A DNA stretch of 64,000 nucleotides, taken from the NCBI GenBank assembly GCA_963725585.1, contig CAVRYU010000009.1:413070-477069 (forward strand), given 5' to 3'. The translations under genes and the position numbers were made by a program. Shown here in pieces: positions 5,725 through 47,133 of the stretch. This DNA is from an uncultured Bacteroidales bacterium (lineage in GTDB: Bacteria; Bacteroidota; Bacteroidia; Bacteroidales; VadinHA17). The notes under the pieces were generated by a model. It was not told where the DNA came from and searched no databases. It saw nothing but the letters and a program-made list of their open reading frames with translations. The stretch's first letter is position 1. Each line of letters begins with the position of its first letter.

Positions 5725-5801
5725 CCCCCTTCCCAACCTTCCCCCACGGGGGAAGGAGTAAGAAAAAATCCTTTCCCCCTTGGGGGAAATAAGAAAGGGG
5801 G
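5725..5801. repeat. C/G-run nested-hairpin intergenic repeat, type 1 (copy A)
   Basis: CCCCC-ttcccaa-CCTTCCCCC acg GGGGAAGG-(15 nt)-TTTCCCCC ttg GGGGAAA-taagaaa-GGGGG. Two internal hairpins are bracketed by a complementary C5/G5 pair. Confidence 0.85.
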
Positions 5802-6034
5802 TCAGCTAACCCTATTTTAACGGATTGATATACACTCATATTCAACCTTTTATTGGAGACAATATTCTCTATTGTAAATAAACAGTCTTTATTTTTGATT
5901 TTAAGAATTTTTAAGGTTTGAAAGTAAAAAAAAGCAGGATCATTATTGCTTATTAAGTCCGATTTAATTTACTTTTACCTGCTCATGTGCCGTCATGGCA
6001 GAATGAAAAGTAATTCAGTATTAATTAAAGGACA

Positions 6035-7120
6035 ATGAAGAGAATAAAAAGAATTTTAAAAAACCCTCAATTTCTCCTCTCGCTGGCTTCGGTCAAGGTG
6101 CTTATTCTTGCAACCGGACTGGTTATTAATGGGCAGTCAGTAAAGCATAAAGCAATCAGGCTTGAAAGGCTTGAGGAACAGCACAAGGTAAATGTTTATA
6201 TCGATGGGTCATTATTCACTACATATCAATATCCGTCTGATCTTGAGAAGCCTTTTCTTTTTCCTGTTTATGCACCTAACGGATCAGTTATTACAAGGGG
6301 ATACCCTCTAGCTCCACGCCCGGGAGAAAGAGTGGATCATCCTCACCAGTTGGGAATATGGTTTAACCATGGAAATATTAACGGGCTGGATTTCTGGAAT
6401 AATTCATCAGCCATTCCGGCGGATAAAAAGGAATCTTATGGACATATTGCAGTTCAGAAGATCATCAGGGCTGAAGGCGGGAAGAAGGGGATCCTGGAAG
6501 TTTCATCTGACTGGAAAGATAACAAAGGGACGACTTTGCTGACAGATAATACGGAATATGTATTTTCGGCCGGGAAGAATTCAAGAACGATCGATCATAT
6601 TGCAACGCTTACCGCTGTAAACGGTCCTGTAACAATTACCGACAACAAGGAAGGTCTCTTTGCGATAAGGGTTGACAGGGCTTTTGAGATGCCATCAAAT
6701 GAATCACTGATATTTACTGATGAAAAAGGTAATCCAACAACTGTGAAAGCCACGGATAATAAAGGGGTAACAGGTATGTTTACCTCAAGTCAGGGGTTAA
6801 AAGGAGATGCAGTATGGGGAACAAGGAACAACTGGGTATTGCTTACAGGGGTGAAAGATAATACAACGATCACCTTTGGTATTTTTGATCATCCGAAAAA
6901 TCCGGGTTACCCTGCATATGCACATGCAAGGGGTTACGGGCTCTTTTCAGTGAATAATCTCGGTCAGAATTCATACGATCCCAAACAGGAGAAGAGAATC
7001 TGGAATCTGGCAAAGGGAGAATCGATTACACTCCGCCACAGGTTTTATGTTCAGTCGGGAGCTGAGCTGACACCTGAAAATGCGGATAAGATATTTAAAC
7101 AATTTTCGAAAGAATATTAG
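6035..7120 (+). CDS. DUF6807 / PmoA-like family protein (function unknown), secreted
   Basis: 361 aa with an N-terminal hydrophobic signal. The motif is PFLFPVYAPNGSVITRGYPLAPRPGERVDHPHQLGIWFNHGNINGLDFWNN. There is a paralog at 48216-49283. Confidence 0.65.
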   Translation: MKRIKRILKNPQFLLSLASVKVLILATGLVINGQSVKHKAIRLERLEEQHKVNVYIDGSLFTTYQYPSDLEKPFLFPVYAPNGSVITRGYPLAPRPGERVDHPHQLGIWFNHGNINGLDFWNNSSAIPADKKESYGHIAVQKIIRAEGGKKGILEVSSDWKDNKGTTLLTDNTEYVFSAGKNSRTIDHIATLTAVNGPVTITDNKEGLFAIRVDRAFEMPSNESLIFTDEKGNPTTVKATDNKGVTGMFTSSQGLKGDAVWGTRNNWVLLTGVKDNTTITFGIFDHPKNPGYPAYAHARGYGLFSVNNLGQNSYDPKQEKRIWNLAKGESITLRHRFYVQSGAELTPENADKIFKQFSKEY

Positions 7121-7127
7121 ACAGGTA

Positions 7128-7156
7128 CCCACCCCCCAGCACCCCTCTCTGGTGAG
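7128..7156. repeat. Truncated/degenerate C-run repeat
   Basis: cccaccccccagcacccctctctggtgag resembles the 5' part of the element at 32720. Confidence 0.4.
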
Positions 7157-7188
7157 TACATGAATATTTACCTAAAACCAAATTAACT

Positions 7189-7989
7189 ATGAAGAAAATC
7201 AATTTGTTCAAAATCGGATTAGCCTCTGTGGCTGTTCTCCTATTCTTCTCATTTACAGCCGTCACAAATGCGGCTCCGCCTAAGCAAATGTATTATGAAC
7301 TAAAAATTTACCGGTTAAAAGATCCGGGTAAAGGTGCCGTTATTGACAAATATCTGAAAGAAGCTTTTATTCCGGCAATGCATAAAGCAGGAATACCTAC
7401 GATTGGAGTTTTCAAACCAATTGAGACAGATACGGCATATGGGAAAATGGTCTATGTATTTATCCCATATAAGACTATAGATCAATATCTTAATGCTATA
7501 ACAGTGCTTGAGAACGATCCAGTTCACCAGCAGGCAGGTAAGGATTTTCTTGACGCTCCATATAATGATGCTCCCTTTACCAGGTATGAGAGTGTATTCA
7601 TGAAGGCCTTTACGCTTATGCCGGAGTTCAGAGTACCTTCTTTTACCACTCCCCGGGGAGAAAGAATTTATGAATTAAGGAGTTATGCGAGTTGGACAGA
7701 GGCAAAAGCAACAAAGAAAATACATATGTTCAACGAAGGCGGTGAAATGGCTATTTTTGAAAAAATTGGAGCTAACGCTGTATTTTATGGTCAGGTATTA
7801 TTAGGCAGTCAGAAACCTAGGCTGATGTATATGACCACATATGCTGATATGAATTCGCAAAAGGAGCATTGGGCTGCTTTCTCGAATCATCCTGACTGGA
7901 AGACTCTCAGGGCAAAGGAGGAATATGCAAATACGGTTATAAAAGCGAACGCATACCTTCTTCATCCGACAGACTACTCAGATTTTTAA
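7189..7989 (+). CDS. NIPSNAP-domain protein (two NIPSNAP repeats), secreted
   Basis: 266 aa with a signal peptide. It has two copies of the Y-E-L-[KR]-x-Y start motif (YYELKIYRLK, IYELRSYAS) typical of NIPSNAP domains. Confidence 0.6.
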   Translation: MKKINLFKIGLASVAVLLFFSFTAVTNAAPPKQMYYELKIYRLKDPGKGAVIDKYLKEAFIPAMHKAGIPTIGVFKPIETDTAYGKMVYVFIPYKTIDQYLNAITVLENDPVHQQAGKDFLDAPYNDAPFTRYESVFMKAFTLMPEFRVPSFTTPRGERIYELRSYASWTEAKATKKIHMFNEGGEMAIFEKIGANAVFYGQVLLGSQKPRLMYMTTYADMNSQKEHWAAFSNHPDWKTLRAKEEYANTVIKANAYLLHPTDYSDF

Positions 7990-7996
7990 TAATTCT

Positions 7997-8077
7997 GCCC
8001 CCCAACCCCCCTAAAGGGGGGCCAGGAAAGCGAAATTTAGATCAAAATCCCCCGCTGATCTAGGGGGCGCAGGGGGC
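7997..8077. repeat. C/G-run nested-hairpin intergenic repeat, type 2 (copy E)
   Basis: GCCCCCC aa CCCCCC taaa GGGGGG ...(27 nt)... CCCCC gctgatcta GGGGG cgca GGGGGC. It abuts the trpB2 stop codon. Confidence 0.85.
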
Positions 8078-9438
8078 TAAGCTGGAAATTCTATTTTTGA
8101 AATAGCATGCTCGACTTCGGCATTTGTAAGCTCGTGATCGGGAAGGTTATTTTCAAAATACTTCTCATAAGCCGAAATGTCGAAATGTCCGTGTCCGCTA
8201 AGGTTAAAAAGTATCGTCCTTGAGACTCCCTCGATATCAGCCTTTCTTGCCTCATCAAGCGCACCGGCAATTGCATAGGTTGATTCGGGAGCTGGAAGAA
8301 TGCCTTCGTTTCTTGCAAAAAGGACACCTGCCTCAAAGCATTCCCTCTGCATTTTTGCCTTTGCTTCGACCAATCCGTCTTTCTTGAGCTGACTTACAAG
8401 TGTTCCGGCCCCGTGATAGCGTAAACCTCCTGCATGTATCTTCTCAGGCATAAAATTATGTCCAAGTGTGTACATGGGCAGGAGAGGGGTCATTCCGGCT
8501 GAGTCGCCAAAGTCGTACATGAATTTCCCCTTTGTAAGTTTAGGGCATGAGGATGGCTCAATTGTCAGCAGTCGCGTCTTTTTACCATTTACCAGGTTTT
8601 CGCGAAGGAAAGGAAATGCAATTCCGGAGAAATTTGATCCGCCACCGAAGCATCCTATTACAACATCAGGATAATCATCGGTTTTTGCCATTTGGAGCAC
8701 GGCTTCCTGTCCTATGATCGTCTGGTGAAGGATAACATGGTTAAGCACACTTCCGAGAGAGTATTTGGTGTAAGGGTCTTCAGCAGCTATTTCCATTGCT
8801 TCAGAAATTGCAATGCCAAGACTTCCCGGAGAATCCGGATCAATTTCAAGAACTCTCCTGCCTGAGACTGTCATAGTTGATGGCGAAGGAATTACCTTGG
8901 CATTATAGACATTCATCAGGAGCTTGCGTCCGGGTTTCTGACCATAGCTGACCTTTACCATAAAGACCAGAAGTTCAAGTCCGAAATGCGCACAGGCGTA
9001 ACTCATTGCGCATCCCCATTGGCCGGCTCCGGTTTCAGTTGTGATCCTTCTTACTCCTTCCTGCTTATTATAGTAAGCCTGTGCAATCGCTGTGTTGGCT
9101 TTATGAGAACCTGAATAATTGCCCCCTTCATATTTAAAATAGATTTTGCTTTTTGTACCCAGGGTTTTTTCAAGATTGACTGCCCTGAACAAAGGTGATG
9201 GACGATAAGTTTTATAGAGGTCAAGTACTTCATCAGGTATTTCAATATACCTTTCAGCTGATACCTCCTGTTTAATCAGCTCCATCGGGAATACGGCAGC
9301 CAGAGCCTCGGGTCCTATTGGCTGACGTGTTGCCGGGTTCAGCGGTGGAAGGGGCTTATTGGGCATATCCGCCATAACATTATACCAGTGGGTTGGCATT
9401 TCTTTTTCGCTCAGTAAAATTTTTGTAATCTTTTTCAT
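8077..9438 (-). CDS. trpB: TrpB2-type tryptophan synthase beta-like PLP enzyme
   Basis: 453 aa. The long TrpB2 N-terminus is present (PTHWYNVMADMPNKPLPPLNP...) along with the PLP-lysine region GGNYSGSHKANTA. No trpA or other trp gene is adjacent. Confidence 0.85.
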   Translation of the reverse strand: MKKITKILLSEKEMPTHWYNVMADMPNKPLPPLNPATRQPIGPEALAAVFPMELIKQEVSAERYIEIPDEVLDLYKTYRPSPLFRAVNLEKTLGTKSKIYFKYEGGNYSGSHKANTAIAQAYYNKQEGVRRITTETGAGQWGCAMSYACAHFGLELLVFMVKVSYGQKPGRKLLMNVYNAKVIPSPSTMTVSGRRVLEIDPDSPGSLGIAISEAMEIAAEDPYTKYSLGSVLNHVILHQTIIGQEAVLQMAKTDDYPDVVIGCFGGGSNFSGIAFPFLRENLVNGKKTRLLTIEPSSCPKLTKGKFMYDFGDSAGMTPLLPMYTLGHNFMPEKIHAGGLRYHGAGTLVSQLKKDGLVEAKAKMQRECFEAGVLFARNEGILPAPESTYAIAGALDEARKADIEGVSRTILFNLSGHGHFDISAYEKYFENNLPDHELTNAEVEHAISKIEFPA

Positions 9439-9471
9439 TGGTTTAATTATTAAATGGTTATAGAATTTTCA

Positions 9472-9505
9472 AATAAAAAAGGCATGCTGTGAACAGCATG
9501 CCTTT
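9472..9505 (-). terminator. Intrinsic terminator of the Trp attenuator, about 33 nt upstream of the trpB2 start
   Basis: The minus strand reads aaaGGCATGCTGttcaCAGCATGCCttttttattt: a 9-bp perfect stem plus a U-tract. Confidence 0.8.
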
Positions 9506-9549
9506 ATGGGTAAATATCTTGTAGATTATATAACGGCCTTATTCACAGC

Positions 9550-9600
9550 TTAAATTTTCGAGCTGCGCCAGGACCAGATATATAATGTTCCAAATTTCAT
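9550..9600 (-). CDS. Trp leader peptide MKFGTLYIWSWRSSKI
   Basis: 16-codon ORF with two Trp codons (W-S-W). Its stop is followed directly by gctgtgaa, which is complementary to ttcacagc in the terminator loop and 3' arm (candidate antiterminator). Confidence 0.7.
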   Translation of the reverse strand: MKFGTLYIWSWRSSKI

Positions 9601-9716
9601 GGCATCAAAAATAAGTAAAAATTTCAATTTGCAAGAAAAAAGCAGAAAATATTTAATTTCTTAAATATTATCGTTGGTTTTAGTGTTAATCTGTTAAAAT
9701 TGATATTATCTTTTTA

Positions 9717-9784
9717 CCCCCTTCCCAACCCTTCCCCCATGGGGGAAGGAGACTTTTCCCCCCTGGGGGAAATAAGAAAGGGGG
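9717..9784. repeat. C/G-run nested-hairpin intergenic repeat, type 1 (copy B)
   Basis: CCCCC-ttcccaac-CCTTCCCCC at GGGGGAAGG-agac-TTTTCCCCC ct GGGGGAAA-taagaaa-GGGGG. It is near-identical in design to copy A and lies just downstream of aroA. Confidence 0.85.
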
Positions 9785-9804
9785 TGTCTCACCTATTCAG
9801 ATGT

Positions 9805-11056
9805 TTATTCATGTACAACAGCTCCAACCTTCCTCAGGTCGTCAAAAAATCCCGGGTATGACTTAACAATACAATGTGAATCCTTGATGAATACAGTGTC
9901 TGATGCACCCAATGCTGCAACAGCTTCAGCCATCGCAATACGGTGGTCATCATGAGAATTTACTCTTGCTCCTTTTACCTTTCCTCCGGTAACGATCAGA
10001 TAATCATCACTCATTTCGACCTTTATATTCATTTTACCAAACTCTTCCGTAAGTGCAGATGCCCGGTCACTTTCTTTATGCCTGAGCCGTGAGGCACCTT
10101 TTAGTTTTGTAACACCTTTGCAGTAAGATGCAAGAGCAACGAGAGGAGGGAAGAGATCGGGCGATTCGGTGGCATCGAATTCAAAAGCTTTAAGATCAGA
10201 TTTTGATACCTCAATATTACTTTCAGTTATCTTCATATTTGCACCGGCTTTCTCAAGAGCTTTAAGTATTCCCATATCGCTCTGAAAGCTGTCTGTCCGC
10301 AAGCCGCTGACATTTATATCTCCGTTTATTGCACCCGCAACAAGAAGGAATGATCCGCCGCTCCAGTCACTTTCAATCCCGTAAGTCACCGGATTGTATT
10401 TCTGCTGCCCGGGTACCCTGAAAAGTTCATAATTCTCATTGGTTATCATAATGCCAAAATCCCTGAGGACTCCAAGTGTCATGTCAATATAGGGTTTGCT
10501 CTTCAGGTTGTTGACTTTTATAATCGATTTGTCATCAGCAAGCGGCAGTGCCATAAGCAAACCAGAAAGGAGCTGAGAGCTGACCGAACCATCAATTTCG
10601 CAATGGCCTCCCTTAAGGGGTCCTCTTATTGTAAGCGGGAGAAATCCGTCAGTAGCTGAACATTTTACTCCAAGCTGATTTAAAGCATCAGCGATCATAT
10701 TCATAGGTCTCTTTTTCAGCGAACCTGCACCTGTCATTGTTATTTCTTCATCAAAAAGTGCTGCTATTGGGGAAAACAGACGTATTGCCAGTCCCGATTC
10801 GCCGCAGTTCAGCTTCTTTTCTTTCAGCTCACCGACAGCCTGTGATCTTCATTTTATCAGGCTGAGGTTCGACCCTTGCACCCAGACTTACTGCAATGCT
10901 CATTGCAGCCAGTGAATCGTCGCAATACGATGGATTCACTAAAAGGCTCTGCCCGTCTGCAAGAATTGCAGCAGCGATCGCCCGTTGAGTCATACTTTTT
11001 GATGGTGGTGCTTTTATCTCACCCCTTACAGACGAAGGCTCTACAGATCTTTCCAT
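9805..11056 (-). pseudogene. aroA: 3-phosphoshikimate 1-carboxyvinyltransferase (EPSP synthase), one frameshift as assembled
   Basis: The N-terminal frame reads MERSVEPSSVRGEIKAPPSKSMTQRA...KMKITGCR*. The C-terminal frame, opened upstream, reads ..VGELKEKKLNCGESGLAIRLFSPIAAL..TGAGSLKKRPM... The frames join with one extra base near 10831-10848. The 11095 start in the track is a TTG extension. Confidence 0.85.
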
Positions 11057-11069
11057 AAAATCAGGTTTC

Positions 11070-12185: not shown

Positions 12186-12198
12186 ATCATTTCATATT

Positions 12199-13044: not shown

Positions 13045-13075
13045 ATCTGTGATTGGTAATTAGTTATTGGTAATT

Positions 13076-13099
13076 CCCCCTTTGAAGGAGGCAAGGGGG
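13076..13099. repeat. Short C5/G5 hairpin (minimal member of the C/G-run repeat family)
   Basis: CCCCCTTtgaaggaggcAAGGGGG, preceded by the tandem attggtaatt..attggtaatt (13051-13075). Confidence 0.5.
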
Positions 13100-13115
13100 A
13101 TGTATTAATGTCATA

Positions 13116-15099: not shown

Positions 15100-15113
15100 C
15101 TTCTGTATGTATT

Positions 15114-15145: not shown

Positions 15146-15183
15146 GCTTATATATGATTTCTTATCAGTATACAAAAATCCCC

Positions 15184-16085: not shown

Positions 16086-16142
16086 GCCCCCCATCCCCCC
16101 TGAAGGGGGGTATTATAAGTCCCCTTTAGGGGATTTAGGGGC
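16086..16142. repeat. C/G-run nested-hairpin repeat, type 2 (copy G), inside the his operon (hisF-hisIE spacer)
   Basis: GCCCCCC at CCCCCC tgaa GGGGGG tattataagt CCCC ttta GGGG attta GGGGC. Confidence 0.85.
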
Positions 16143-27483: not shown

Positions 27484-27496
27484 TTCTTTTTCTTAT

Positions 27497-27594
27497 CTCA
27501 GTGGAACTCTGTGTCTCCTCAGTGGAACTCTGTGTAATGTTTTTATAAGAATTTACACAGAGAAACACAGAGAAGTCACAGAGGAACACAGAGG
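27497..27594. repeat. Simple-sequence hairpin element inside the operon (leuA-leuC spacer)
   Basis: The left arm is a tandem tc(t/c)tcagtggaactctgtgt x2. The right arm is four roughly 10-nt units containing cacagag (tacacagagaaacacagagaagtcacagaggaacacagagg), the reverse complement of ctctgtg. Confidence 0.8.
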
Positions 27595-27602
27595 TTTTCC
27601 GT

Positions 27603-29096
27603 TTATTTGATCTTGGATATTGCATCTATAAATGCTTCTACTGAAGCGGTTACTATATCAACATTTGCAGAGAAGCCGTAATAAATCTTTCCCTCGTGTT
27701 CTATCTGGATATGGACCTTCCCGATATCATCGCTTCCTTTTGTTATTGCCTGTATAAGGAACTCCTCGAGATGAACTGTTTTACTGATAAGGTGCTTTAC
27801 TGCCGCAAAGGCAGCATCGATTGGTCCGTTTCCTGAAGCTGTTGAGGTATGTACCTCCCCGTTTATTCTTATTCCCACTGTTGCAACAGGTATGGCTGAT
27901 TTTCCGCATGTAACCTGGAGAAGCTCAAGCTTAAGAGACTTTTCTCCTGAAAAGACTTCTCCGGAGAGAATTCTGAGGTCCTCGTCATTGATCTCCTTTT
28001 TCTTGTCGGCAAGTGTAAGAAAACGGTGATAAATATCATCAAGTTCCTCCTTACCGAAATTATAACCCAGTGTTTCAAGCCTGTGATTGAGAGCCGCCCT
28101 TCCGCTTCTCGCAGTCAGGATAATTGATGATTCCTTTATTCCAACCTCATGAGGATCAATTATCTCGTAATTTTCCCTGTACTTAAGGACTCCATCCTGG
28201 TGAATTCCTGAAGAGTGAGAAAAGGCATTCCTGCCAACAATCGCTTTGTTAGGCTGGACGGGCATGCTCATAAGTGTTGATACGAGTCTGCTTGTGCTGA
28301 AAATTAGCTTTGAATTAATGTCCGTTTTAAGGTTCATTGAGTGATGGCTTTTGAGGATCATTGCCACCTCTTCGAGCGATGTGTTTCCAGCCCTTTCACC
28401 AATACCGTTCATAGTCACTTCAACCTGCCGTGCTCCGTTCAATACTCCCATTATAGTGTTTGCGGTTGCCATACCAAGGTCGTTATGACAATGCGTCGAG
28501 ATGGTTGCTTTATTAATATTTGAGACATTTTCCTTAAGAAACCTGATCTTTTCCCCATACTCTTCCGGAAGGCAGTATCCTGTTGTATCAGGTATATTCA
28601 CCACTGTTGCACCTGCCTTTATGACTGCCTCGATGACCTTTGCAAGATATTCGTTTTCACTTCTTCCCGCGTCTTCAGCATAAAACTCAACATCTTCCAC
28701 AAATTTACGGGCATATTTTACAGCATCGACAGCTCTTTTAAGTATCTCCTCAGGTGTTGTCCTGATTTTATACTTTATGTGATAGGGAGATGTACCGATA
28801 CCGGTGTGTATCCTCTTCTTTTTTGCATACTGGAGCGCTTCGGCAGCCACTTCAATATCTTTCTTCACAGCTCTTGTAAGAGCGCATATTACCGGATTTG
28901 AGATAGCTTTTGATATTTCAACGACGGATTTGAAATCACCCGGACTGGAAATCGGGAATCCGGCTTCAATTACATCGACACCGAGAGCTTCAAGTGCCTG
29001 CGCTACCTGGATTTTTTCAACGGTGTTCAGCTGGCAGCCTGGCACCTGCTCCCCGTCCCTCAGGGTAGTATCGAAAATGATTACTTTGTCTTCCAT
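27603..29096 (-). CDS. leuA: 2-isopropylmalate synthase
   Basis: 497 aa ([24 protein letters not shown]-terminal regulatory domain). Confidence 0.9.
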
Positions 29097-29115
29097 AATT
29101 GCTTGATTATGATTA

Positions 29116-30222: not shown

Positions 30223-30285
30223 GCCCCCCTTCCCCCCTGAAGGGGGGTTGAAAGCTTTTTAAGCCCCCTTTAGGGGGTTGGGGGC
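30223..30285. repeat. C/G-run nested-hairpin repeat, type 2 (copy H), ilvN-ilvC spacer, overlapping the ilvN 3' end
   Basis: GCCCCCC tt CCCCCC tgaa GGGGGG ttgaaagctttttaag CCCCC ttta GGGGG tt GGGGGC. The last ilvN codons (..LPPTP*) are read from the repeat. Confidence 0.85.
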
Positions 30286-30867: not shown

Positions 30868-30934
30868 CCCCCCAACCCCCCCGGAGGGGGGCAAAATTCT
30901 GTTGGGAATTAACTCCCCTTCAGGGGATGAGGGG
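30868..30934. repeat. C/G-run nested-hairpin repeat, type 2 (copy I), ilvB-ilvN spacer
   Basis: CCCCCC aa CCCCCCC gga GGGGGG ...(23 nt)... CCCC ttca GGGG atga GGGG. Confidence 0.8.
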
Positions 30935-30942
30935 TATTTGCT

Positions 30943-32712
30943 TTATTTGTATGTTAAAGTCACCTCCGATACTGAAGCTCCAGGTTCAATCATTGGCAGC
31001 ACATTTGCCTCCTTGTCGATTTTTATATCGAGCAGGTATGGTCCGTCTGCCTCAAGCATTTCAACCAGTGATTTTTTCAGTTCCTCTCTTTCCGACACAA
31101 TTTTTGCAGGTATGCCATACCCTTTTGCAATAGTTATAAAATCGGGATTGACAAGTTCGGTTGATGCATACCTTTTCGAGTAGAACATATCCTGCCATTG
31201 TCTTACCATTCCAAGGAAATTATTATTCAGGATAATGATCTTAACCGGGATCCTGTACTGCATTATTGTTCCGAGTTCCTGTATCGTCATCTGGAATCCA
31301 CCGTCACCAATAAATGCAACTACCTGTTTGTCGGGCTTTCCGATTTTTGAACCAATCGATGCAGGAAGTCCGAAGCCCATAGTTCCCATACCACCTGATG
31401 TTACAAGACTGTTAGGGTTTGAAAAGCCGTAATAACGTGCGACCGACATCTGATTCTGTCCGACATCAGTCACAATTATTGCATCACCCTTCGTCAGTTC
31501 AGAAACCAGCCTGACAACTTCTCCCATCTTAAGCTTCCCTTTTTCAGGTCTTGTTTCGGACTTAATAACTTTTTCATATTCAGTCTTGTCGCAGATCCTG
31601 AATTCCCTTATCCATTTTTCATAACTTTTTTTCTGAACTATGGGAATCAGATAATTAAGGACCTCTTTTGCATCATTGTTTATTTCCAGATCGACTATTA
31701 CATTTTTATTGATCTCTGCTTCATCGATTTCGATATGAATTATCCTTGCATTTTTTGCATATTTTTTAAGGTTCCCTGTTACCCTGTCATCGAAACGCAT
31801 TCCGATGGCAATAATTAGATCAGCCTCATTTGTAAGCAGGTTTGGACCATAGTTCCCATGCATCCCGAGATATCCCGTATAGAGACGATGCCCTGATGGA
31901 AACGAAGAGAGACCGAGCAGGGTTACTGCAACAGGGATTCCGGTTTTTTCGGCAAATTTCAGAAGCTCGTCTTCAGCTCCAGATAAAAGCACTCCGTGTC
32001 CTGCAAGGATAAGCGGCTTTTCAGCATGATTGATCATAATTGCAGCTGATTCGATTGCCCTTGTATGCAGTTTAATGTGGGGATTATAACTCCTTATATA
32101 ATTACACTTTTTATATTTAAAGTCGAGCTTTTCGTACTGGGCATCCTTTGTAATATCAATGACAACTGGTCCGGGCCGCCCGGTTTTCGCAATGTAAAAT
32201 GCCCGTGCGATTGTTTCAGGGATATCAACCGATTTCTTTATCTGGGCATTCCATTTAACAACAGGCATCGAAACCCCAAGTATGTCAGTCTCCTGGAAGG
32301 CATCCGTCCCGATCAGGTTTGAAACCACCTGTGCCGTTATGAATACTACAGGAATAGAATCGAGATAAGCATTTGCTATCCCGGTAATCAGATTGGTTGC
32401 CCCCGGACCGGATGTCGCAAAGCACACACCAGTCTTGCCTGTAACCATAGCATAAGCCTGGGCAGCATGAGCCGCACCCTGTTCATGCCTTGTAAGTATA
32501 TGGTTCAGTCTGCCTTCATAATCGAGAAGACGGTCGTAAACCGGCATTATGGCACCTCCCGGATAACCGAAAATAGTATCCACACCTTCCTCAACCAGGC
32601 ACCTGAGAAGTGCCTCAGCACCGGTAACTGTCTCAAACCCGTTTGTCTGTTCCTTAACCTGTATCGTTTCCTTTTCAGTCTTCATAAAATAACTTTTATC
32701 TTTATCGATCAT
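30943..32712 (-). CDS. ilvB: Acetolactate synthase large subunit (ThDP-dependent)
   Basis: 589 aa (GAEALLRCLVEEGVDTIFGYPGGA, GGMGTMGFGLPASIG, GDGGFQM). The start could also be the internal ATG at 32685. Confidence 0.9.
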   Translation of the reverse strand: MIDKDKSYFMKTEKETIQVKEQTNGFETVTGAEALLRCLVEEGVDTIFGYPGGAIMPVYDRLLDYEGRLNHILTRHEQGAAHAAQAYAMVTGKTGVCFATSGPGATNLITGIANAYLDSIPVVFITAQVVSNLIGTDAFQETDILGVSMPVVKWNAQIKKSVDIPETIARAFYIAKTGRPGPVVIDITKDAQYEKLDFKYKKCNYIRSYNPHIKLHTRAIESAAIMINHAEKPLILAGHGVLLSGAEDELLKFAEKTGIPVAVTLLGLSSFPSGHRLYTGYLGMHGNYGPNLLTNEADLIIAIGMRFDDRVTGNLKKYAKNARIIHIEIDEAEINKNVIVDLEINNDAKEVLNYLIPIVQKKSYEKWIREFRICDKTEYEKVIKSETRPEKGKLKMGEVVRLVSELTKGDAIIVTDVGQNQMSVARYYGFSNPNSLVTSGGMGTMGFGLPASIGSKIGKPDKQVVAFIGDGGFQMTIQELGTIMQYRIPVKIIILNNNFLGMVRQWQDMFYSKRYASTELVNPDFITIAKGYGIPAKIVSEREELKKSLVEMLEADGPYLLDIKIDKEANVLPMIEPGASVSEVTLTYK

Positions 32713-32719
32713 TTCTTAA

Positions 32720-32813
32720 CCCACCCCCCGCCCCTCCCAGGAGGGGAGCCTAATGTGTAAGCCCTCACCTCGCACCCCGTACCTCGTACCCGTCGTACCC
32801 CGTACCCCGTACC
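32720..32813. repeat. Degenerate C-run hairpin followed by a cgtacc microsatellite (ilvD-ilvB spacer)
   Basis: ccaCCCCCCgCCCCTCCcaggaGGGGAG is followed by ccccgtacctcgtacccgtcgtaccccgtaccccgtacc, which carries 5 copies of cgtacc. Confidence 0.7.
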
Positions 32814-34646
32814 TTATATAATCCGAACTGCTCCCTTATCTGCTGAGCTTACCAGTTTTGCATATGCTTTAAGTGAAGGCGGAATTGCCCTGTTTCTTTT
32901 TGAAGGTTTAAAGGCATTATCCCCTTTAAGTTGTTCTTCATGAATTCTTTCGACAAACTCATTTTCTGAAATAAGGGCATTTATTTTACGGCCGGGAACA
33001 TCTATTTCAATCTGATCACCTTTCCTGAGAACAGCAATTTCCCCACTTGCTGCTGCCTCTGGCGATAAATGTCCTATCGATAACCCTGATGTACCTCCTG
33101 AAAACCTTCCGTCAGTTATTAGAGCGCATTTCTTATCGAGAAGTTTTGATTTCAGATAGGAAGTAGGGTAAAGCATTTCCTGCATACCTGGTCCTCCTTT
33201 TGGCCCTTCATACCTTATAACCACAGCATCACCCTGGGTTACAATTCCTTTTAGAATTCCGTCCACAGCCTCTTCCTGCGATTCGAAAATAATTGCCGGG
33301 CCCTTAAATTTTAAAAGAGAAGGATCGATGCCCGCAGTTTTAACAATACATCCGTTCTTTGCGATGTTTCCATAAAGCACAGCGAGACCTCCGTCTTTAT
33401 TATAGGCGTTTTGCATGCTTCTTATACATCCGTTCTTCCTGTCGGTATCAGGATCGTCATAAAAAGTGCTCTGGGAACCCATCTCAAGATTCTTTTTCAT
33501 TGATGGAGCACTCATCCAAAGATCTTTTGCCTCAGGCAGGATTTCACTGCTCATAATGTCCCAATCGGCAATTGCCTTGTGCAGGCTGTTATAATCGATA
33601 CGTTTCACAGAACTATCTATCAGTTTATTGCGTTCAAGTTCTCCCATTATTGAAAGAATTCCTCCGGCTCTGTTAACATCCTGTATGTGGTACCTGGAAC
33701 TCGGCGAAACTTTACAGATGTTAGGTATCCGTCGCGATAGTTCATCAATATCTTTCATTGTAAAATCAACACCGGCTTCATGAGCAATTGCAAGAAGATG
33801 GAGAACAGTATTAGTCGATCCGCCCATGGCTATATCAAGCGACATTGCATTCATAAACGCCTGTTTTGTTGCAATTGATCGCGGCAAAATGTCTGAATCA
33901 CCGTCGACATAATATCTGTTTGCGAGACTGACTATTAATTTTGCGGCCTTTTCGAAAAGTTTCAGTCTGTTGGAATGAGTGGCAAGTACTGTACCGTTAC
34001 CGGGCAATGCCAGACCAAGGGCTTCAACAAGGCAGTTCATGGAGTTTGCTGTAAACATCCCTGAGCATGATCCGCATGTAGGGCAAGCCGACATCTCCAT
34101 TTCATAAAGGTCCTTATCACTTACAGAGTCATCGGCTGCAGATACCATCGCGTCGATCAGATCGATATTTCTGTTCCGGTAGTTGCCGGCCTCCATGGGC
34201 CCGCCTGAAACAAATACTGCTGGTATATTCAATCTCATCGATGCCATAAGCATACCAGGAGTTATTTTATCGCAATTGCTTATACATATCATTGCATCAG
34301 CCAGATGGGCATTACATACATATTCTACGCTGTCTGCTATAAGTTCCCTTGACGGGAGGGAATAAAGCATTCCTTCATGCCCCATTGCTATGCCGTCGTC
34401 TATTGCTATAGTATTGAATTCAGCTGCAAACAGACCCTGCTTTTCAATCTCTTTTTTTATGGACTGTCCTATGCTATGAAGATGAACATGTCCGGGAACG
34501 AATTGCGAGAAGGAGTTGACGATTGCTATCACGGGTTTTCCGAACTGATCCTCTTTCATTCCGTTTGCCCGCCAGAGACTTCTTGCACCGGCCATGTTCC
34601 TTCCTGTTGTTGTTCTTGAACTTCTGAGCTGATTTTTCATCGCCAT
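32814..34646 (-). CDS. ilvD: Dihydroxy-acid dehydratase
   Basis: 610 aa ([43 protein letters not shown]). Confidence 0.9.
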
Positions 34647-38528: not shown

Positions 38529-38611
38529 CGTAAGGTTATTAATTTGTGATTGAGTCGAATAAAAGTATAAAAAATCTTCCTATATTCAGCGATCATTTCA
38601 ACATTACTGTC

Positions 38612-40019: not shown

Positions 40020-40068
40020 TTCATTAAAAAAATTTCTATTTTTACAAATAATAACCTTAATCCGACAT

Positions 40069-40091
40069 CCCCCTTCCCCCATCAAAGGGGG
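40069..40091. repeat. Truncated C/G-run repeat (type 1-like)
   Basis: CCCCCttCCCCCatcaaaGGGGG. Confidence 0.5.
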
Positions 40092-40142
40092 ACTATAAAT
40101 CTTGAATCTTATAAATTAATAATAAACTTTAAAGACAAAAAA

Positions 40143-41015: not shown

Positions 41016-41042
41016 ACAGCCTTTTATACGAAATTTATTTTC

Positions 41043-42131
41043 ATGCATAAGATTTTATTTTTTCTGACAGGATCATTATTGATCCTGTCAGCTTCAGGTT
41101 GCGGTGATAAATATTATTCCGAAGGTGATTTTTCTTCTGTTTTAAAGATTGATTCTCATGTCCATATAAACAGCAATAAAGGATATTTTGAAGAACAGGC
41201 CATTAAGGATAATTTTATACTTATTACCCTTGGAGTGGATCACGGGGATTCGGCTAATATCCAGCGTCAGCAGGAAAATGCAACTTTTTCGGCCGGGAAA
41301 TATCCCGGTAAAGTATTCTATGGACCAACATTTCTATTCGATACTGCAGGCTGGGGAACAGACTCCTGGAGTAAAAAAGTAATTAACACAGCTGGATAAA
41401 GATATTGCAGGTGGTGCAATTACGGTGAAAATATGGAAAAACATAGGGATGACGGTACGCGACAGATCCGGGAAATTCATAATGACAGATGATCCCGGCT
41501 TGGATCAGGTGTGTTGAATTCATGAAAAGCAAAGGACTCCCTGTTACGGGCATCTTGGTGAGCCACGAAACTGCTGGCTCCCCCTTGATCAGATGACTGT
41601 TAGCAGCGATAGTAGTTATTTTGCCAGCAATCCTCAGTATCATATGTTTCTTCATCCTGAATACCCTTCATATGAGGATCAGATAAATGGCCCGCGATAA
41701 CCTGCTCGTAAAACATCCCGATCTGATATTTCATCGGCTGTCACCTTGGCAGTCTTGAATGGAATGTTGATTCACTTGCAAAAAGGCTTGACAGGTTTCC
41801 CAACATGGCAGTGGATATGTCGGCCAGAATTTGTCATTTGCAGTATCAGTCGGCACAGGACAGAAAGAGGGTAAGGGATTTTTGCATCAAATATCAGGAC
41901 AGGCTACTTTATGGAACCGACACAGGCGACAGCGGGAATTCTGATCCTGAAAGATTCAAAAATAATATGCATGAAACATGGCTTGATGACTGGATATATT
42001 TTACCACAGATGATGAGATGACTTCGGATAAGTTCAGGGGGAAATTCACCGGACTAAAGCTTCCGGAAGAGGTGGTAGATAAGATTTACAGCGGGAATGC
42101 CATTAAATGGTATAAATTGAAATTAAATTAA
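41043..42131 (+). pseudogene. Metal-dependent amidohydrolase (Amidohydro_2-like), interrupted by about 5 single-base indels
   Basis: Homology-like sequence can be followed across frames. The pieces are: lipoprotein signal..IDSHVHI..KKVIN | QLDKDIAGGAITVKIWKNIGM..DDPGLDQV | EFMKSKGLPVTG | HLGEPRNCWLPLDQM..HPEYPSYEDQIN | ARDNLLVKHPDLIF | IGCHLGSLEWNVDSLAKRLDRFPNMAVD... Confidence 0.7.
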
Positions 42132-42141
42132 TCAAGAATCA

Positions 42142-42199
42142 GCCCCCCAACCCCCCTAAAGGGGGGCTAAAATACTACCCCCTTTAGGGGGCAGGGGGC
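42142..42199. repeat. C/G-run nested-hairpin repeat, type 2 (copy F)
   Basis: GCCCCCC aa CCCCCC taaa GGGGGG ctaaaatacta CCCCC ttta GGGGG ca GGGGGC. This is the most compact and regular copy. Confidence 0.9.
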
Positions 42200-42212
42200 A
42201 AAACCAAATATT

Positions 42213-43731
42213 ATGAAGCCATATTTTACCAAACTTAGTGTTTTAATTCTGTCCCTTATTTTTGTAACAAATGTTACAATTTTCGGACAGAAGGGAAATC
42301 TTCCGGTTGCCTCTGGGCCCTTTAAGCCTACTGATGAATCACTTCAGCAGAACAAGTATCCTGAATGGTTCAGGGATGCTAAATTCGGAATCTGGTCGCA
42401 CTGGGGCCCTCAGGCAGTACCAAGGCAGGGCGACTGGTATGCAAGAAGAATGTACCAGGAGAAGGATCCTGCCTATAAGTACCATGTTGAACATTATGGT
42501 CATCCATCGGAATTTGGCTTCAAGGATATTATTCCACTCTGGAAAGCTGAAAAATGGGATCCTGAAAAACTTATGGCTCTGTACAAAAAAGCCGGTGCCA
42601 GAGTATTTTGTCAGCATGGGAACACATCACGACAATTTCTTTCTGTGGAATTCAAATATTCACAAATGGAATGCCGTAAAAATGGGTCCGCAAAAGGATG
42701 TTGTAGGAATCTGGCAGAAAGCAGCAAAGGCACAGGGCTTGAAATTTGGGGTATCTGAACATCTTGGTGCAAGTTTCACCTGGTTCCAGGATGCTCACAG
42801 GTCGGACAGCCAGGGACCTAAAGCCGGCGTACCATATGACGGAGCAAATCCTGAATTCAGTGACCTGTACCATGCTGCCACTACTCCTGACGATAAAGGA
42901 TGGCTTACAAACAATCTTGTTTTTCAGATTGAATGGTTCAGCTCCATAAAAGAACTGATTGATAATTATCATCCTGATCTTCTTTATTCCGACAGCGGGA
43001 TGCCTTTTGAAGATGTCGGTAGAAGTCTGATTTCTCATTATTACAATCAGGATATAACCAGGAACAACGGTATCCTTAATGTGGTATATACATGTAAACA
43101 GGCTTCCGGAGGCAAATGGGTGGAAGACGTGGAAAGGGGAGTAAAAGATACTGCAAGCCTGTATCCATGGCAGACCGATACATCAATCGGAGACTGGTAC
43201 TACAGGACAGGCCAGAAATATAAAAGCGCCACAGAGGTAGTTCAGATGCTGGTCGATATCGTAAGCAAAAATGGCAACCTTCTCTTAAATGTCGTTCAGA
43301 CTCCGGAAGGCGACCTGGAACCAGATATGCTGAAAATACTTGACGAAATAGGAGTCTGGACTTCAGCCAACGGGGAAGGGATATATGGCACCCGACCATG
43401 GAAAACCTTCGGTGAGGTGTCGGCAGAATCAAAAGCTTTTAAACCTGGGCGCTTCAATGAAAACTATAAATTCAACTCGAAGGATATCCGTTTTACGGCA
43501 AAAGATGGTATATTGTATGCTTTCTGTCTGGGAATTCCGACAGAGGATATTCTGATAAGGTCGCTGGGTAAAAACTCCGGTCTTACTGAAAAACCTGTTG
43601 CCTCCGTGAAGATGCTCGGGAGTGATATTAAGATCAGGTGGACCCAGACTGCGAACGGATTGATAATAAAAAAACCATCAAAATTCCCCATATGGCAGGT
43701 GCCGGGATTTAAGATCGAATTCAGTAAATAG
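42213..43731 (+). pseudogene. GH29 alpha-L-fucosidase, secreted, one frameshift as assembled
   Basis: The first frame carries the signal peptide and ..EWFRDAKFGIWSHWGPQAVP..ALYKKAGAR. The second frame continues YFVSMGTHHDNFFLWNS... to 43731. There is one extra base near 42600-42612. Confidence 0.8.
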
Positions 43732-43755
43732 CTTTAACCTAAACCCAAATCTATA

Positions 43756-44517
43756 ATGGACTCAATTTTTAACTCGCGAAGAAGCTTTATAAAGAAAGCT
43801 GCTTTAGGAACCATGGCTGCGATAAGCATCCCGGAAATCCTTTCAGCAGCAATGCCTAAGGAAAAAATTAAAGGTTTAAAGCTTTTAAAGGAACAGGTGA
43901 TCCTGTTTCAGGGTGATTCAATAACGGATTCAGGCAGAAATAAGGAAGATACAGGATTCAATACAGCCAGGAATCTGGGTTCTGGTTACCCGATGCTGGC
44001 AGGAGCTGCCATACTGAACAAATATGAAGCGCTGAATCTTAAAATTTATAACAAAGGCATTTCAGGAAATAAAGTCTTCCAGCTTGCCGAACGATGGGAC
44101 AAAGATTGCCTCGAACTTAAACCCGATGTACTGAGTATCCTTATCGGCGTAAATGATATATGGCATAAGCTCAACGGAACTTACAACGGCACAGCTGAAA
44201 TTTACAGGAATGACTACATAGCCCTGCTTGAAAGAACCATAAAAGCTCTTCCAAACGTGAAACTCATTATATGTGAGCCTTTTGCTGTTAAGGGAGTAAA
44301 AGCTGTTGATGATAAATGGTATCCTGAATTCTTCGATTACCAGAAGGCAGCAAAAGATATTGCCCGGCAGTTCAAAGCAACTTTCATTCCGTTCCAGAGC
44401 GTTTTTGATGAAGCCCAGAAAAGAGCTCCGGGATCATACTGGACAGGTGACGGTGTCCATCCGTCACTTGCCGGCGCCCAGCTAATGGCAAAAGCCTGGA
44501 TGAAAGCCCTTTTATAA
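43756..44517 (+). CDS. SGNH/GDSL hydrolase (esterase) with TAT-like signal
   Basis: 253 aa. It has an SRRSFIKKAALG twin-arginine motif. SGNH blocks are FQGDSITD, GISGN, GVND and DGVHPS. Confidence 0.75.
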   Translation: MDSIFNSRRSFIKKAALGTMAAISIPEILSAAMPKEKIKGLKLLKEQVILFQGDSITDSGRNKEDTGFNTARNLGSGYPMLAGAAILNKYEALNLKIYNKGISGNKVFQLAERWDKDCLELKPDVLSILIGVNDIWHKLNGTYNGTAEIYRNDYIALLERTIKALPNVKLIICEPFAVKGVKAVDDKWYPEFFDYQKAAKDIARQFKATFIPFQSVFDEAQKRAPGSYWTGDGVHPSLAGAQLMAKAWMKALL

Positions 44518-44536
44518 TTCTAATCCTGTAAAAAAA

Positions 44537-45395
44537 ATGAAAAACATAACACGACGCGGATTCATTCAGCATAGTCTTTCTGCCGGCATCGGGATGGCTG
44601 CCCTGAGCCCGTCTTCCTGACCTGCCTGCTATGGCAAAGGGAAAAATGAAATTTGGCCTTGTAACTTATCAATGGGGAAGAGACTGGGATCTGCCGACAC
44701 TTATTGCCAACTGTGAAAAGACAGGATTACTGGGCGTTGAACTGAGAACTGAACATGCACACAAGGTTGAGATAAACCTTACTGCTGCTCAGCGTGCTGA
44801 GGTAAAAAAACGCTTTGCCGACAGTCCGGTTGAATGCATTGGCTATGGAGCCAATTTTGAGTATCACAGCCCTGATCCTGCACAGCTCCGGACCAATATT
44901 GAGCAGACAAAAGAGTATATTAAACTTTGTAAAGATATCGGAGCAACCGGAATCAAGGTAAAACCAAATGATCTTCCTGCGGGTGTTCCAAAGGAGAAGA
45001 CAATAGCACAGATCGCGGCTTCGCTGAATGAAATCGGAAAGTTTGGCCGCGATTATGACCAGCTTGTAAGGGTTGAGGTCCATGGCAACCTTACACAGGA
45101 AATTCCAAATATGAAAGCAATTTTCGAACTTGTAACCGAACCGAATGTCAAAATGTGCTGGAACTGCAATGACCAGGATCTGCTTCCGCCCGGACTTGAA
45201 GCTAACTTCAATTCTGTTAAGAAATGGTTTGGCGATACGGTTCATGTCCGTGAACTGAATGTAGGTGATTATCCGTATCAGCAGCTTTTTAATTTATTTA
45301 ACGGCATCAGATATAAAGGCTGGATCCTTCTTGAAGCACGTACAGAACCTGCTGACAGAATCGCAGCATATGAAAGAACAATTGACAATTTTTAA
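44537..45395 (+). pseudogene. Xylose-isomerase-like TIM-barrel protein with TAT signal, one frameshift as assembled
   Basis: The TAT signal ORF is MKNITRRGFIQHSLSAGIGMAALSPSS*. The mature part follows in the next frame (..LPDLPAMAKGKMKFGLVTYQWG...). The frames join near 44605-44618. Confidence 0.7.
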
Positions 45396-45411
45396 ACAAA
45401 TGACGAAATAA

Positions 45412-45485
45412 CCCCCTTTCCCGTTTCCCCCAGGGGGGAAAGGCTGAATAATTCCTTCCCCCTTGGGGGAAGGCTAGGAAGGGGG
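45412..45485. repeat. C/G-run nested-hairpin repeat, type 1 (copy C), inverted relative to copies A and B
   Basis: CCCCC-tttcccg-TTTCCCCC ag GGGGGAAA-ggctgaataatt-CCTTCCCCC ttg GGGGAAGG-ctaggaa-GGGGG. This matches the reverse complement of copy A. Confidence 0.85.
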
Positions 45486-45522
45486 TAAGAAAATAATAAG
45501 GATGACTAAAAACTATCTAAAA

Positions 45523-46896
45523 ATGACAAACAGAAGAGATTTTATAAAGATCAACAGCTATTGGTGCTGCAGGGATCACAATAGGTGGATCTGGGCCTCA
45601 GTCCAAAAAGCTATTCCCAGGTGGTGGGATCCAACGATCGTATCAATCTCGCCGTAGTTGGCATCCGCAGCAGGGGCAGGGATCATATTAACAGCTGGTG
45701 CGCGCTTAAGGACAACCGCAACGTAAGGATAAAGACGATATGTGATGTTGATGAACAATTTTATCGCTCAGGCCGCAAAGCTCATCCTCGACAAATCAGG
45801 GGAAAAGGCAGTCACTGAATGGGATATGCGCAAGGTGTTCGATGATAAGGATATTGATGCTGTCTCATTCGGGGTTCCCAACCACTGGCATGCCTTAAGT
45901 GCAATATGGGCCAGCCAGGCAGGGAAACATGTGTATGCTGAAAAACCAGCCTGCCATAACATTTATGAAGGAAGAAAAATGGTCGAAGCTGCAGCGAAAT
46001 ATAATGTACGTATGCAGACCGGATGCCAGAACCGGTCAATTCCAAACGTCATAGAAGCTATGAAGTTCCTGCACAGCGGAGGTATCGGCGATGTCTTTAT
46101 GGCAAAAGGTCTCTGCTATAAACCCCGCGATTCCTTTGGAATTGCACCTGACGGAACTGCACCGGCATCACTTCATTACGATATGTGGCTCGGCCCTGCT
46201 CCTTTACGTCCATATAATGAAAAGAGAGTGCATTACAACTGGCACTGGTTCTGGGATACAGGAAATGGTGACACAGGCAACCAGGGACCTCATCAGTTCG
46301 ATATTGCTCGCTGGGGTCTGAACAAAAATGAACATCCTGTTTCGATATACTCAATGGGAGGTCTTTTCGGAATTAATCCTGCTGAATGTGCTCAGGAAAC
46401 CCCGAATACCCAGACCTCAATGTTCAAATATAAGGACGGCAAAATACTGGAATTCGAGACAAGGGGAAGGTACACGAATGATGAATCAAGTCTGGGAATC
46501 CGGATAGGCAATACATTTTACGGGACCGAAGGGTATCTTGAACTGAATGAAGAAACATGGAAAGCATTCCGTAAGCGCGAAAGGGAGCCATTTGCCGGAT
46601 CAAAAACCGGTGAAAAAAGTGTCGGCGATCCGACATTCCTTGCTGCTCCGGGAGGAACTGAACATTTTGCTAATTTTCTCGATGCAATCCGTTCAGGCAA
46701 GGATGAAACCCTTAATTGCCAGATAAAAGAAGGTTTTATTTCATCAGCACTTCCGCTTCTTGCAAATATTTCCTACCGGCTTGGAAGGGAACTTACATTT
46801 GATGGAGCAAAGGAAAAGTTCGTAAAAGACAAGGCAGCTGATGCAATGCTAACAAGGAACTACAGGAAACCATACGTTGTTCCGGAAGTTGTTTGA
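45523..46896 (+). pseudogene. Gfo/Idh/MocA-family oxidoreductase with TAT signal, three frameshifts in the first ~240 nt as assembled
   Basis: The pieces across frames are MTNRRDFIKI | TAIGAAGITIGGSG | ..SPKSYSQVVGSNDRINLAVVGIRSRGRDHINSW..ICDVDEQF | IAQAAKLILDKSGEK... The remaining 384 aa are intact (..VPNHWHA..YAEKP..). Confidence 0.75.
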
Positions 46897-46915
46897 AAGT
46901 ATAGAAGAATTTTAC

Positions 46916-47040
46916 CACGGGTTTCACGGAGTTTCACGGAATTTCATTCCCAGATCCAACAAAAAAATGTAATTACATTGTAATTACGTATTTTCTATGT
47001 TAAAGATCATAAAACCCGTGTAAATCCGTGAAATCCGTGG
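46916..47040. repeat. Simple-sequence inverted-repeat element (MITE-like architecture)
   Basis: The left arm is ccacgggtttcacggagtttcacgg. The right arm is cccgtgtaaatccgtgaaatccgtgg, its imperfect reverse complement. The core holds a tandem tgtaattac x2. Confidence 0.75.
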
Positions 47041-47062
47041 TTAATGGATTTAATTATAGATA

Positions 47063-47133
47063 CCCCCAAACCCCCCAAGGGGGGCTTAAGAAAGAGTAGA
47101 GTTTATTGAAGTCCCCCCTGGGGGATTTAGGGG
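47063..47133. repeat. C/G-run nested-hairpin repeat, type 2 (copy J)
   Basis: CCCCC aaa CCCCCC aa GGGGGG ...(28 nt)... CCCCC ct GGGGG attta GGGG. Confidence 0.8.

Follow-up and report, generated by a model that had tools for sequence, protein, structure and literature searches.

The C-run/G-run repeats studied here lie on a 64,000-nucleotide (nt) stretch of an uncultured Bacteroidales genome (assembly GCA_963725585.1, contig CAVRYU010000009.1; the whole stretch is hereafter called the window). They are probably miniature copies, lacking an open reading frame (ORF), of small selfish elements of uncultured Bacteroidales that encode a DUF559 nuclease. The repeat modules were found to be the ends of DUF559-encoding elements, which they bracket strictly. 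One short copy is an internal-deletion derivative of a coding element, and nuclease lineage and end type have co-diversified, each of the two lineages having its own cognate type of end.

The repeat unit was characterized by scanning a single genome of each species for the pattern C6-NN-C6-TRAA-G6 (Type 2); loci returned or fetched were given L-numbers. More than 118 stretches were retrieved, nearly all from metagenome-assembled genomes (MAGs) of uncultured Bacteroidales and 'Rikenellaceae' from fens, soils, and sediments. It is a widespread family among MAGs of uncultured Bacteroidales. As the genome loci were chosen by the Type-2 pattern, the module statistics derived from them are biased. 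In 118 genome loci and the window, 200 modules were identified, each composed of a C-run foot, 1–4 nt, a second C-run, a loop, and a G-run. The foot is a run of C4-8 followed by a short linker (AA, TG, AT, and others), and the hairpin loop is TAAA or TGAA in 222 of 275 modules. Adjacent modules were paired as (+,−) in 52 cases, as (−,+) in none, and on the same strand in 11; the element is therefore a head-to-head doublet of one module (foot plus hairpin), which replaces the fixed three-stem unit proposed in an earlier sequence-only reading of the window. Doublet spacers range from 11 to 150 nt with clusters near 22, 47, and 145 nt. The inverted repeat of a doublet often runs further inward (G6-yTAA...TTAr-C6), and its flanks follow TTTR-C6...G6-YAAAA. 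The modules are strongly conserved and the spacers variable. Single modules, 'double-foot' single hairpins, half-module tandem arrays, and nested composites (L035, L097, and L075) were also observed.

The association with DUF559 emerged when small ORFs flanked by hairpins at either end were sought. Two such ORFs were DUF559 genes (PF04480; Pfam E-values of 7e-37 and 4e-31), and the 1.56 Mb of loci contained three intact DUF559 genes (L001, L051, and L061), each located between a left and a right module. In a motif-independent test, a protein search with the L051 protein returned 3415 homologues, and seven fetched with their flanks by protein sequence alone were all bracketed by modules (7/7). 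The left module was located 65–219 nt upstream of the ATG and the right module −10 to +41 nt from the stop codon. In L215 and L217, the stop codon TAG fell within the right hairpin loop, and in L222 and L223, the ORF read through the right module (..EPPLGGRG, then stop). The protein terminated in ..PL in 43 of the 120 best homologues and carried a C-terminal ..PPLGG.. in 33 more; thus, the right end has long been part of the gene.

A second DUF559 lineage (L061 type) was 41% identical to the first and was bracketed, at five of five loci (L061 and four more), by a different, architecturally identical end. Its left end comprises CATGTACTCA-C5, approximately 6 nt, and the hairpin C5TCTCTGC/GCAAAGAG5, and its right end is the inverse (..G6TGAGTACATG). 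Each of these hairpins has one conserved mismatch, and the complementarity between left and right ends is perfect. Overall, 14 of 14 independent DUF559 loci, in 14 different gene neighbourhoods, had a gene of approximately 130 amino acids between a left and a right module. The full-length element spans approximately 520–700 bp and consists of a left end, a leader of 65–220 nt, the DUF559 gene, and an inverted right end, by which the final codons and the stop codon of the gene are often encoded. An exact TAnnTTTG was present in 5 of the 14 leaders, 35–61 nt before the ATG, compared with 3% of random 100-nt windows; this is the consensus of the Bacteroidetes −7 promoter box.

The transition from a coding to an ORF-less copy can be followed at L008, where a doublet with a 150-nt spacer holds a C-terminal remnant of DUF559. 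Positions 1–123 of the spacer match positions 486–364 of the L215 element (86% over 123 nt), and positions 123–150 match positions 58–31 (96% over 28 nt). By this two-piece alignment, the spacer is an internal deletion lacking most of the leader and gene of a coding element. The L008 element is itself nested inside an L061-type hairpin. Two further arrangements were noted among coding loci: L227 carries two complete DUF559 elements in tandem (801–1836), and L223 has a DUF559 C-terminal fragment downstream of a right module (1411–1638), which suggests that one element was inserted into another.

By sequence and modelled fold, the encoded protein is assigned to the Vsr/EDxHD homing-endonuclease fold. 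Residues D63, E74, D76, and H80 were invariant in sets of 15 and 22 sequences, and catalytic roles may be attributed to them by analogy. The protein matched the uncharacterised DUF559 structure PDB 3HRL (E-value of 3e-15). Its AlphaFold2 (AF2) model had a predicted local distance difference test score (pLDDT) of 78.7, and Foldseek ranked 3hrl first, followed by the catalytic domain of I-Bth0305I (3r3p), which was the best characterised structural match (E-value of 2e-4; template-modelling score of 0.82 normalised to the target). PvuRts1I/AbaSI and Vsr (1cw0) were weaker matches to the same model. Pfam assigned DUF559, with a weak match to the MTES_1575 nuclease domain in two proteins and no recognised transposase, and the NCBIfam match to 'DUF559 domain-containing protein' was below its cut-off. 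In a survey of PD-(D/E)XK enzymes, Vsr, DUF559, and I-Bth0305I were placed in one clade (PMC3424549). A defence-system reading was rejected, as PADLOC gave weak nuclease-domain matches only. Many lineage-2 proteins (P0242, P0262, P0283, P0286, and others) are named 'leucyl-tRNA synthetase' by JGI, almost certainly through propagation of a mis-annotation. DUF559 has thousands of members without an assigned role.

Comparison of orthologous sites indicates that the repeats are mobile and are rapidly gained and lost. A metagenome scan with ilvN yielded 80 orthologous loci, in which the ilvB–ilvN and ilvN–ilvC spacers were empty in many relatives (−8 to approximately 35 nt), held a C/G-run element in others, and in still others held a (CTCTGTG)n...(CACAGAG)n family or other palindromes. 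Alignment of five relatives with 84–86% DNA identity gave clean presence/absence at five operon junctions; the ilvB–ilvN, ilvN–ilvC, ilvD–ilvB, and ilvC–leuA spacers were empty, filled, or occupied by another family, and independent insertions at slightly shifted positions were seen between ilvN and ilvC. The site of the window copy at 30223 (ilvN–ilvC) was empty in L126, whereas L120, L123, and L124 had a single module at another position and L119 and L121 shared the doublet of the window. At the site of 30868 (ilvB–ilvN), no element was present in L124 and L126, whose stop and start codons are 1–3 nt apart, and the site was filled in L119, L120, and L123. The site at 32720 (ilvD–ilvB) was empty in L126 and held the same module type in L123 and L120. 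No target-site duplication (TSD) was detected, the best direct repeat averaging 2.58 nt compared with 2.43 ± 0.16 nt after permutation. Three doublets with related spacers in L097 indicate amplification within one genome.

We infer that the DUF559 nuclease drives this mobility. The nuclease would nick or cut the hairpin or cruciform ends, or the target sites, and copies would then arise by break-induced copying or recombination, in a homing-like manner unlike DDE-type cut-and-paste. Recombination-dependent copying would fit because TSDs are absent, partial ends occur in tandem, and elements are nested within the hairpins of other elements. The ORF-less doublets would be moved in trans and may also offer the gene sites at which to land. 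An mRNA transcribed across a copy would contain a GC hairpin of very high stability (−35 to −50 kcal/mol), which may act like repetitive extragenic palindromic (REP) sequences at the 3' ends of operon mRNAs; such effects are plausible, and we regard them as a side effect and not as the reason for the element's existence. More tentatively, and with somewhat less than even confidence, we propose that small DUF559 proteins are the mobility enzymes of an unrecognised class of bacterial transposable element, compact, TSD-free, with foot-plus-hairpin inverted ends, and spawning REP-like miniatures after stop codons and in operons.

[quoted passage not shown] A nuclease that drives mobility would also define a new kind of mobile element and would be a candidate for an enzyme specific to hairpins or other structures. 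Operon expression, genome rearrangement, and assembly quality are all shaped by interspersed palindromic repeats, the origin of which is obscure for most bacterial phyla; here, a family abundant in environmental Bacteroidales can be tied to a specific and unexpected gene. Many DUF559 genes are on short contigs, a pattern that would agree with breaks at such repeats during assembly. Annotation is affected as well, as the ends of some ORFs, such as ilvN, are encoded by the element.

Several points weigh against the origin from DUF559 elements and against a role of the nuclease in mobility. Neither a DUF559 gene nor a remnant of one was found in the window; therefore, for this genome, the link rests on its relatives. 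No coding partner was demonstrated for Type 1, nor for the class with spacers of approximately 145 nt (L014 type), which did not resemble DUF559 elements. Between foot and hairpin, the dinucleotides of the two ends were identical in 9 of 64 doublets, compared with an estimated 12 or so by chance, and such unrelated ends are not predicted by a simple model in which the whole unit is copied. The DUF559 gene could be a mere passenger, and we know of no PD-(D/E)XK/Vsr-fold enzyme that acts as a sole transposase. The conserved spacer of approximately 145 nt was observed inside Type-2 doublets of L003, L014, L029, L046, L050, L075, and L112, in different gene contexts and different MAGs; it is flanked by outer inverted arms of approximately 60 nt and further outer modules.

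It is unlikely that another enzyme moves the elements and that DUF559 is cargo or a secondary invader, for example, a free-standing homing endonuclease that uses the modules of a doublet as homology arms. In its favour, the protein is structurally nearest to a homing endonuclease, ORF-less doublets far outnumber coding copies among the loci examined, the two modules of a doublet are frequently of different subtypes, and most spacers bear no relation to DUF559 elements. On the other hand, the co-diversification of lineages and end types and the stop codon lying in the right module across a large family argue for a long-standing unit, and no alternative transposase was seen near the elements. 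With the EDxHD/Vsr-fold homing endonucleases (I-Bth0305I; PMC3239194) and free-standing homing endonuclease genes, the elements have in common the nuclease fold, a small selfish ORF with its own promoter-like leader, and insertion without duplication. In contrast, the DUF559 genes described here are outside introns, inteins, and phage and are bounded by hairpin terminal repeats, and they occupy many non-homologous intergenic sites with abundant ORF-less derivatives, unlike classical single-site homing.

The repeats were described as REP-like in the sequence-only reading, and in position and form this was borne out: they are a genuine interspersed family of high-copy, extragenic, imperfect palindromes, often in inverted doublets. 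One could accordingly regard the modules as REPs and the doublets as REPINs (REP doublets forming hairpins), moved as single-stranded hairpins by a single-copy RAYT (a Y1 HUH transposase) encoded elsewhere in the genome, with DUF559 as an unrelated gene that happens to be flanked; we consider this quite unlikely. The resemblance to REPs, bacterial interspersed mosaic elements (BIMEs), and REPIN-RAYT systems includes extragenic hairpins that are short and GC-rich and carry a 5' foot, inverted doublets, single hairpins of the 'double-foot' form, mosaic arrays, absence of TSDs, post-stop and intra-operon positions, and a single protein-coding partner flanked by repeats. RAYTs of subclasses 2.4 and 2.6, whose structures are 'atypical', occur in Bacteroidetes (Quentin et al. 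2018, PMC6006769), and the (CTCTGTG)n..(CACAGAG)n family resembles the RAYT-linked REP GGTCTGTGGCACACAGAAC of Cytophaga hutchinsonii. However, the foot is a C-run and contains no GT[AG]G or CGTC, and the modules are unlike any published Bacteroidetes REP (supplementary table of Quentin 2018). The partner is a DUF559 PD-(D/E)XK/Vsr-fold nuclease instead of a Y1 HUH transposase, its gene lies inside one doublet with the stop codon in the right hairpin, and the doublet spacers within one genome are mostly unrelated. No Y1 transposase was found in the 1.56 Mb of module-rich loci by phmmer with the E. coli RAYT (a query verified against 4ER8) and by motif searches, which together are a weak test; the sole candidate (90 amino acids, E-value of 0.01–0.02) was spurious. 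A REPIN origin also leaves unexplained the bracketing of all 14 DUF559 loci, the C-termini derived from the right module, and the two lineages with two end types.

That the repeats are immobile RNA or DNA signals selected by the host (mRNA 3'-end stabilisers, attenuators, terminators, protein-binding sites, or a three-way-junction RNA) is very improbable, since orthologous sites of close relatives are empty or hold another family, some copies lie in divergent promoter regions (5725), and coding versions exist, even though the post-stop position, the enrichment in convergent spacers, the presence inside the ilv-leu operon, the very stable predicted hairpins, and the conservation of modules against variable spacers would suit such signals. 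The tests of position and of host signals were as follows. Only 14 of 126 classifiable elements were inside ORFs, in DNA that is 83% coding sequence, so that the elements are strongly extragenic and not equally frequent in coding DNA. Convergent spacers contained 28% of the 112 extragenic elements compared with 12.6% of background spacers, and divergent spacers contained 11.6% of the elements compared with 28.6% of spacer length. Many copies begin 0–30 nt past a stop codon. On both strands, their flanks are rich in T upstream and in A downstream, which is opposite to the arrangement at an intrinsic terminator; at positions +2 to +5, A was present in 31–39 and T in 9–15 of 64 copies. An intrinsic terminator was rejected, as the U-tract was lacking and a terminator scan was at background (21 sites versus 18.1 ± 4.9). 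Integron attC sites, CRISPR, and G-quadruplex or i-motif structures were also rejected on sequence grounds, because core sites and regular spacing were lacking and a doublet has just three runs on each strand.

The predicted folds likewise disagree with a three-way junction. The element had been proposed to close into such a junction, whereas the minimum free energy (MFE) fold took this form for only one of the nine full window copies (7997). In the other eight, the two halves, being inverted copies of the same module, pair into one extended hairpin; the predicted hairpins ranged from −35 to −51 kcal/mol. Compensatory changes in the stems had also been suggested as a check, and the arm lengths alone co-vary (r = 0.64); the stems are homopolymer runs, so covariation cannot test them. 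Tandem arrays of partial ends and flank, with periods of approximately 19–66 nt, adjoin complete elements (L097 5180–5400, L035 6000–6400, and the flanks of L212, L217, and L223), one example being TTTTTACCCCCCACCCCCTAAAGG repeated three times beside a complete element; they look like repeated abortive end-processing or slippage.

The repeats had not been recognised as a described family in the sequence-only reading, and our searches agree. The Rfam gathering search of the window gave no matches, and the exact motif strings were absent from the searchable literature. In an Rfam E-value search with eight long copies, only a sub-threshold plant microRNA hairpin model was returned, which reflects a long foldback and was rejected. 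Neither the family nor its association with DUF559 was described in the searchable literature, the coverage of which is incomplete. We regard the family as a new member of the REP/MITE kind, and its coding partner possibly makes it a new class of element. Like MITEs and their parent insertion sequences (ISs), the family has short ORF-less forms and a longer coding form with terminal inverted repeats in common, includes at least one miniature that is simply an internal deletion of a coding element, and has many dispersed copies of variable size. Unlike in MITEs and ISs, there is no TSD, and every terminal repeat consists of its own foot and hairpin; moreover, the encoded protein is, to our knowledge, outside every transposase class (DDE, DEDD, HUH, serine, and tyrosine). 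The GC clusters of yeast mitochondrial DNA (PMC4478555) are also short, GC-rich, palindromic or two-hairpin elements in AT-richer intergenic DNA, differ in presence between close relatives, and sometimes alter the 3' ends of genes. The double-hairpin elements of Allomyces mitochondrial DNA are comparable. Both differ from the present family in being organellar, unrelated in sequence, and not known to have a dedicated nuclease gene between their ends.

The window is a segment of bacterial chromosome with 42.6% GC; thus, its description as AT-rich holds only moderately. It contains genes of aromatic amino-acid, histidine, and ilv-leu biosynthesis together with glycoside hydrolases, and the nearest relatives of its proteins are from uncultured Bacteroidales (ilvC identity of at most 92%). 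C-run/G-run structures were present at all 13 positions listed by the sequence-only reading:

5725..5801, unstranded: Type-1 doublet between divergent genes, with a C5 foot, the hairpin CCTTCCCCC/GGGGGAAGG, a spacer, the hairpin TTTCCCCC/GGGGGAAA, and a G5 foot (repeat search D8 and D13)
7128..7162, + strand: collapsed remnant of the second end type, ..ACCCA-C6 / CCCCTCTCTG / GTGAGTACATG, between two + strand genes, identified by comparison with lineage-2 DUF559 ends
7997..8077, unstranded: Type-2 left module GCCCCCC-AA-CCCCCC-TAAA-GGGGGG and a degenerate right module, filling the entire spacer of convergent genes
9717..9784, unstranded: Type-1 doublet, 20 nt past the stop codon of the EPSP synthase gene (− strand)
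13076..13104, + strand: single module of a third type, CCCCC-TTTGAAGG..GGGGG-ATGTA, in the spacer that separates tyrA-like and aminotransferase genes
16086..16142, unstranded: doublet of a Type-2 left module and a ..GGGGATTTAGGGG-type right module, 30 nt past the hisF stop codon (repeat search D7)
30223..30285, unstranded: Type-2 doublet between ilvN and ilvC
30868..30934, unstranded: Type-2 doublet between ilvB and ilvN
32720..32750, + strand: single left module with a CCCA-C6 foot and the hairpin CCCCTCC-CA-GGAGGGG, between ilvD and ilvB
40069..40091, + strand: single left module of Type 2, C5-TT-C5-ATCAAA-G5, located 50 nt upstream of a + strand gene (repeat search D4)
42142..42199, unstranded: Type-2 doublet with an 11-nt spacer, 11 nt past a stop codon, forming an extended hairpin of −42.9 kcal/mol
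45412..45485, unstranded: Type-1 doublet in the orientation opposite to those at 5725 and 9717, 17 nt past a stop codon
47063..47133, unstranded: doublet of a Type-2-like left module and the right module CCCCCC-T-GGGGG-ATTTA-GGGG, with the next start codon 20 nt further on (repeat search D7)

These copies exceed what composition would give. The pattern C5-NN-C5-N4-G5 with at most one mismatch matched the window 14 times, compared with 0.00 across 100 dinucleotide shuffles. Hairpins of C>=4, a loop, and G>=4 numbered 20, compared with a shuffle mean of 4.1 (maximum of 10), and 19 of the 20 fell within the reported elements; no hairpins with the opposite arrangement (G-run...C-run) were found in the window. 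An independent repeat search of the window recovered the same families (D4, D5, D7, D8, D10, and D13). The architecture assigned to the nine full copies was confirmed except at 7997, where the loop of hairpin 2 is 9 nt.

The division into two sequence subfamilies did not stand, as more than two were present, and the four copies taken for truncations (7128, 13076, 32720, and 40069) are other module types. The copy at 7128–7162 is a collapsed element of the ACTCA-C5...C5TCTCTGC type that flanks lineage-2 DUF559 genes. The copy at 13076–13104 matches the TTCCCCCTTTGAAGG...GGGGGATGTA type found at ilv-leu junctions of the relatives L119 and L124. The right module at 16086 matches those flanking the DUF559 gene of L001, and that at 47063 is nearly identical to L001 7340–7360, beside the same gene. 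The architecture of approximately 75 nt seen at 5725 was also present in other MAGs (L008, L036, L042, and L167). Three window copies lie within one operon, between ilvD, ilvB, ilvN, and ilvC. The claim that all copies are intergenic holds with one nuance: the copy at 30223 encodes the final five codons of ilvN and its TAA stop codon (..ILPPTP, then stop), which sits in a hairpin loop. Adjoining the module at 32720, short imperfect tandem repeats (..CCCCGTACCTCGTACCCGTCGTACCCCGTACCCCGTACC..) occupy window positions 32751–32812, and their length varies among relatives.

The exact Type-2 module was also present in thirteen IMG/VR viral contigs (L199–L211), and in L204, copies adjoin a phage head-tail connector gene.

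Other repeats were noted in the window and at orthologous sites. At 27487–27609, four direct CTCTGTG-like units, a spacer, and four inverted CACAGAG-like units form an element of an unrelated palindromic family, located exactly between the leuA stop codon and the next start codon at a site that is empty in all five close relatives. This (CTCTGTG)n/(CACAGAG)n family was present in 48 of 225 loci, including the ilvB–ilvN spacer of many relatives, and no ORF-bearing version of it was found among the loci examined. A third hairpin family, GGATTGCTTC.CC...GCAATGAC, was found in the ilvC–leuA and ilvD–ilvB spacers of L119, L120, and L124 (orthologous to window positions ~29101–29114 and ~32702–32814); it is sometimes fused to C/G-run modules and was not seen in the window. 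At approximately 38500, gene orientation in the window flips from − (8–38 kb) to + (38.5–50.8 kb) at the minimum of the cumulative GC skew, which may represent a replication-related strand switch. At 3390–3490, in the interval between two − strand ORFs, the 9-nt unit GACCTGCAA is repeated in tandem (repeat search D6), and diverged 252-nt tandem repeats with 60–74% identity at 62390–63856 (D1–D3) are probably a repeated protein domain.

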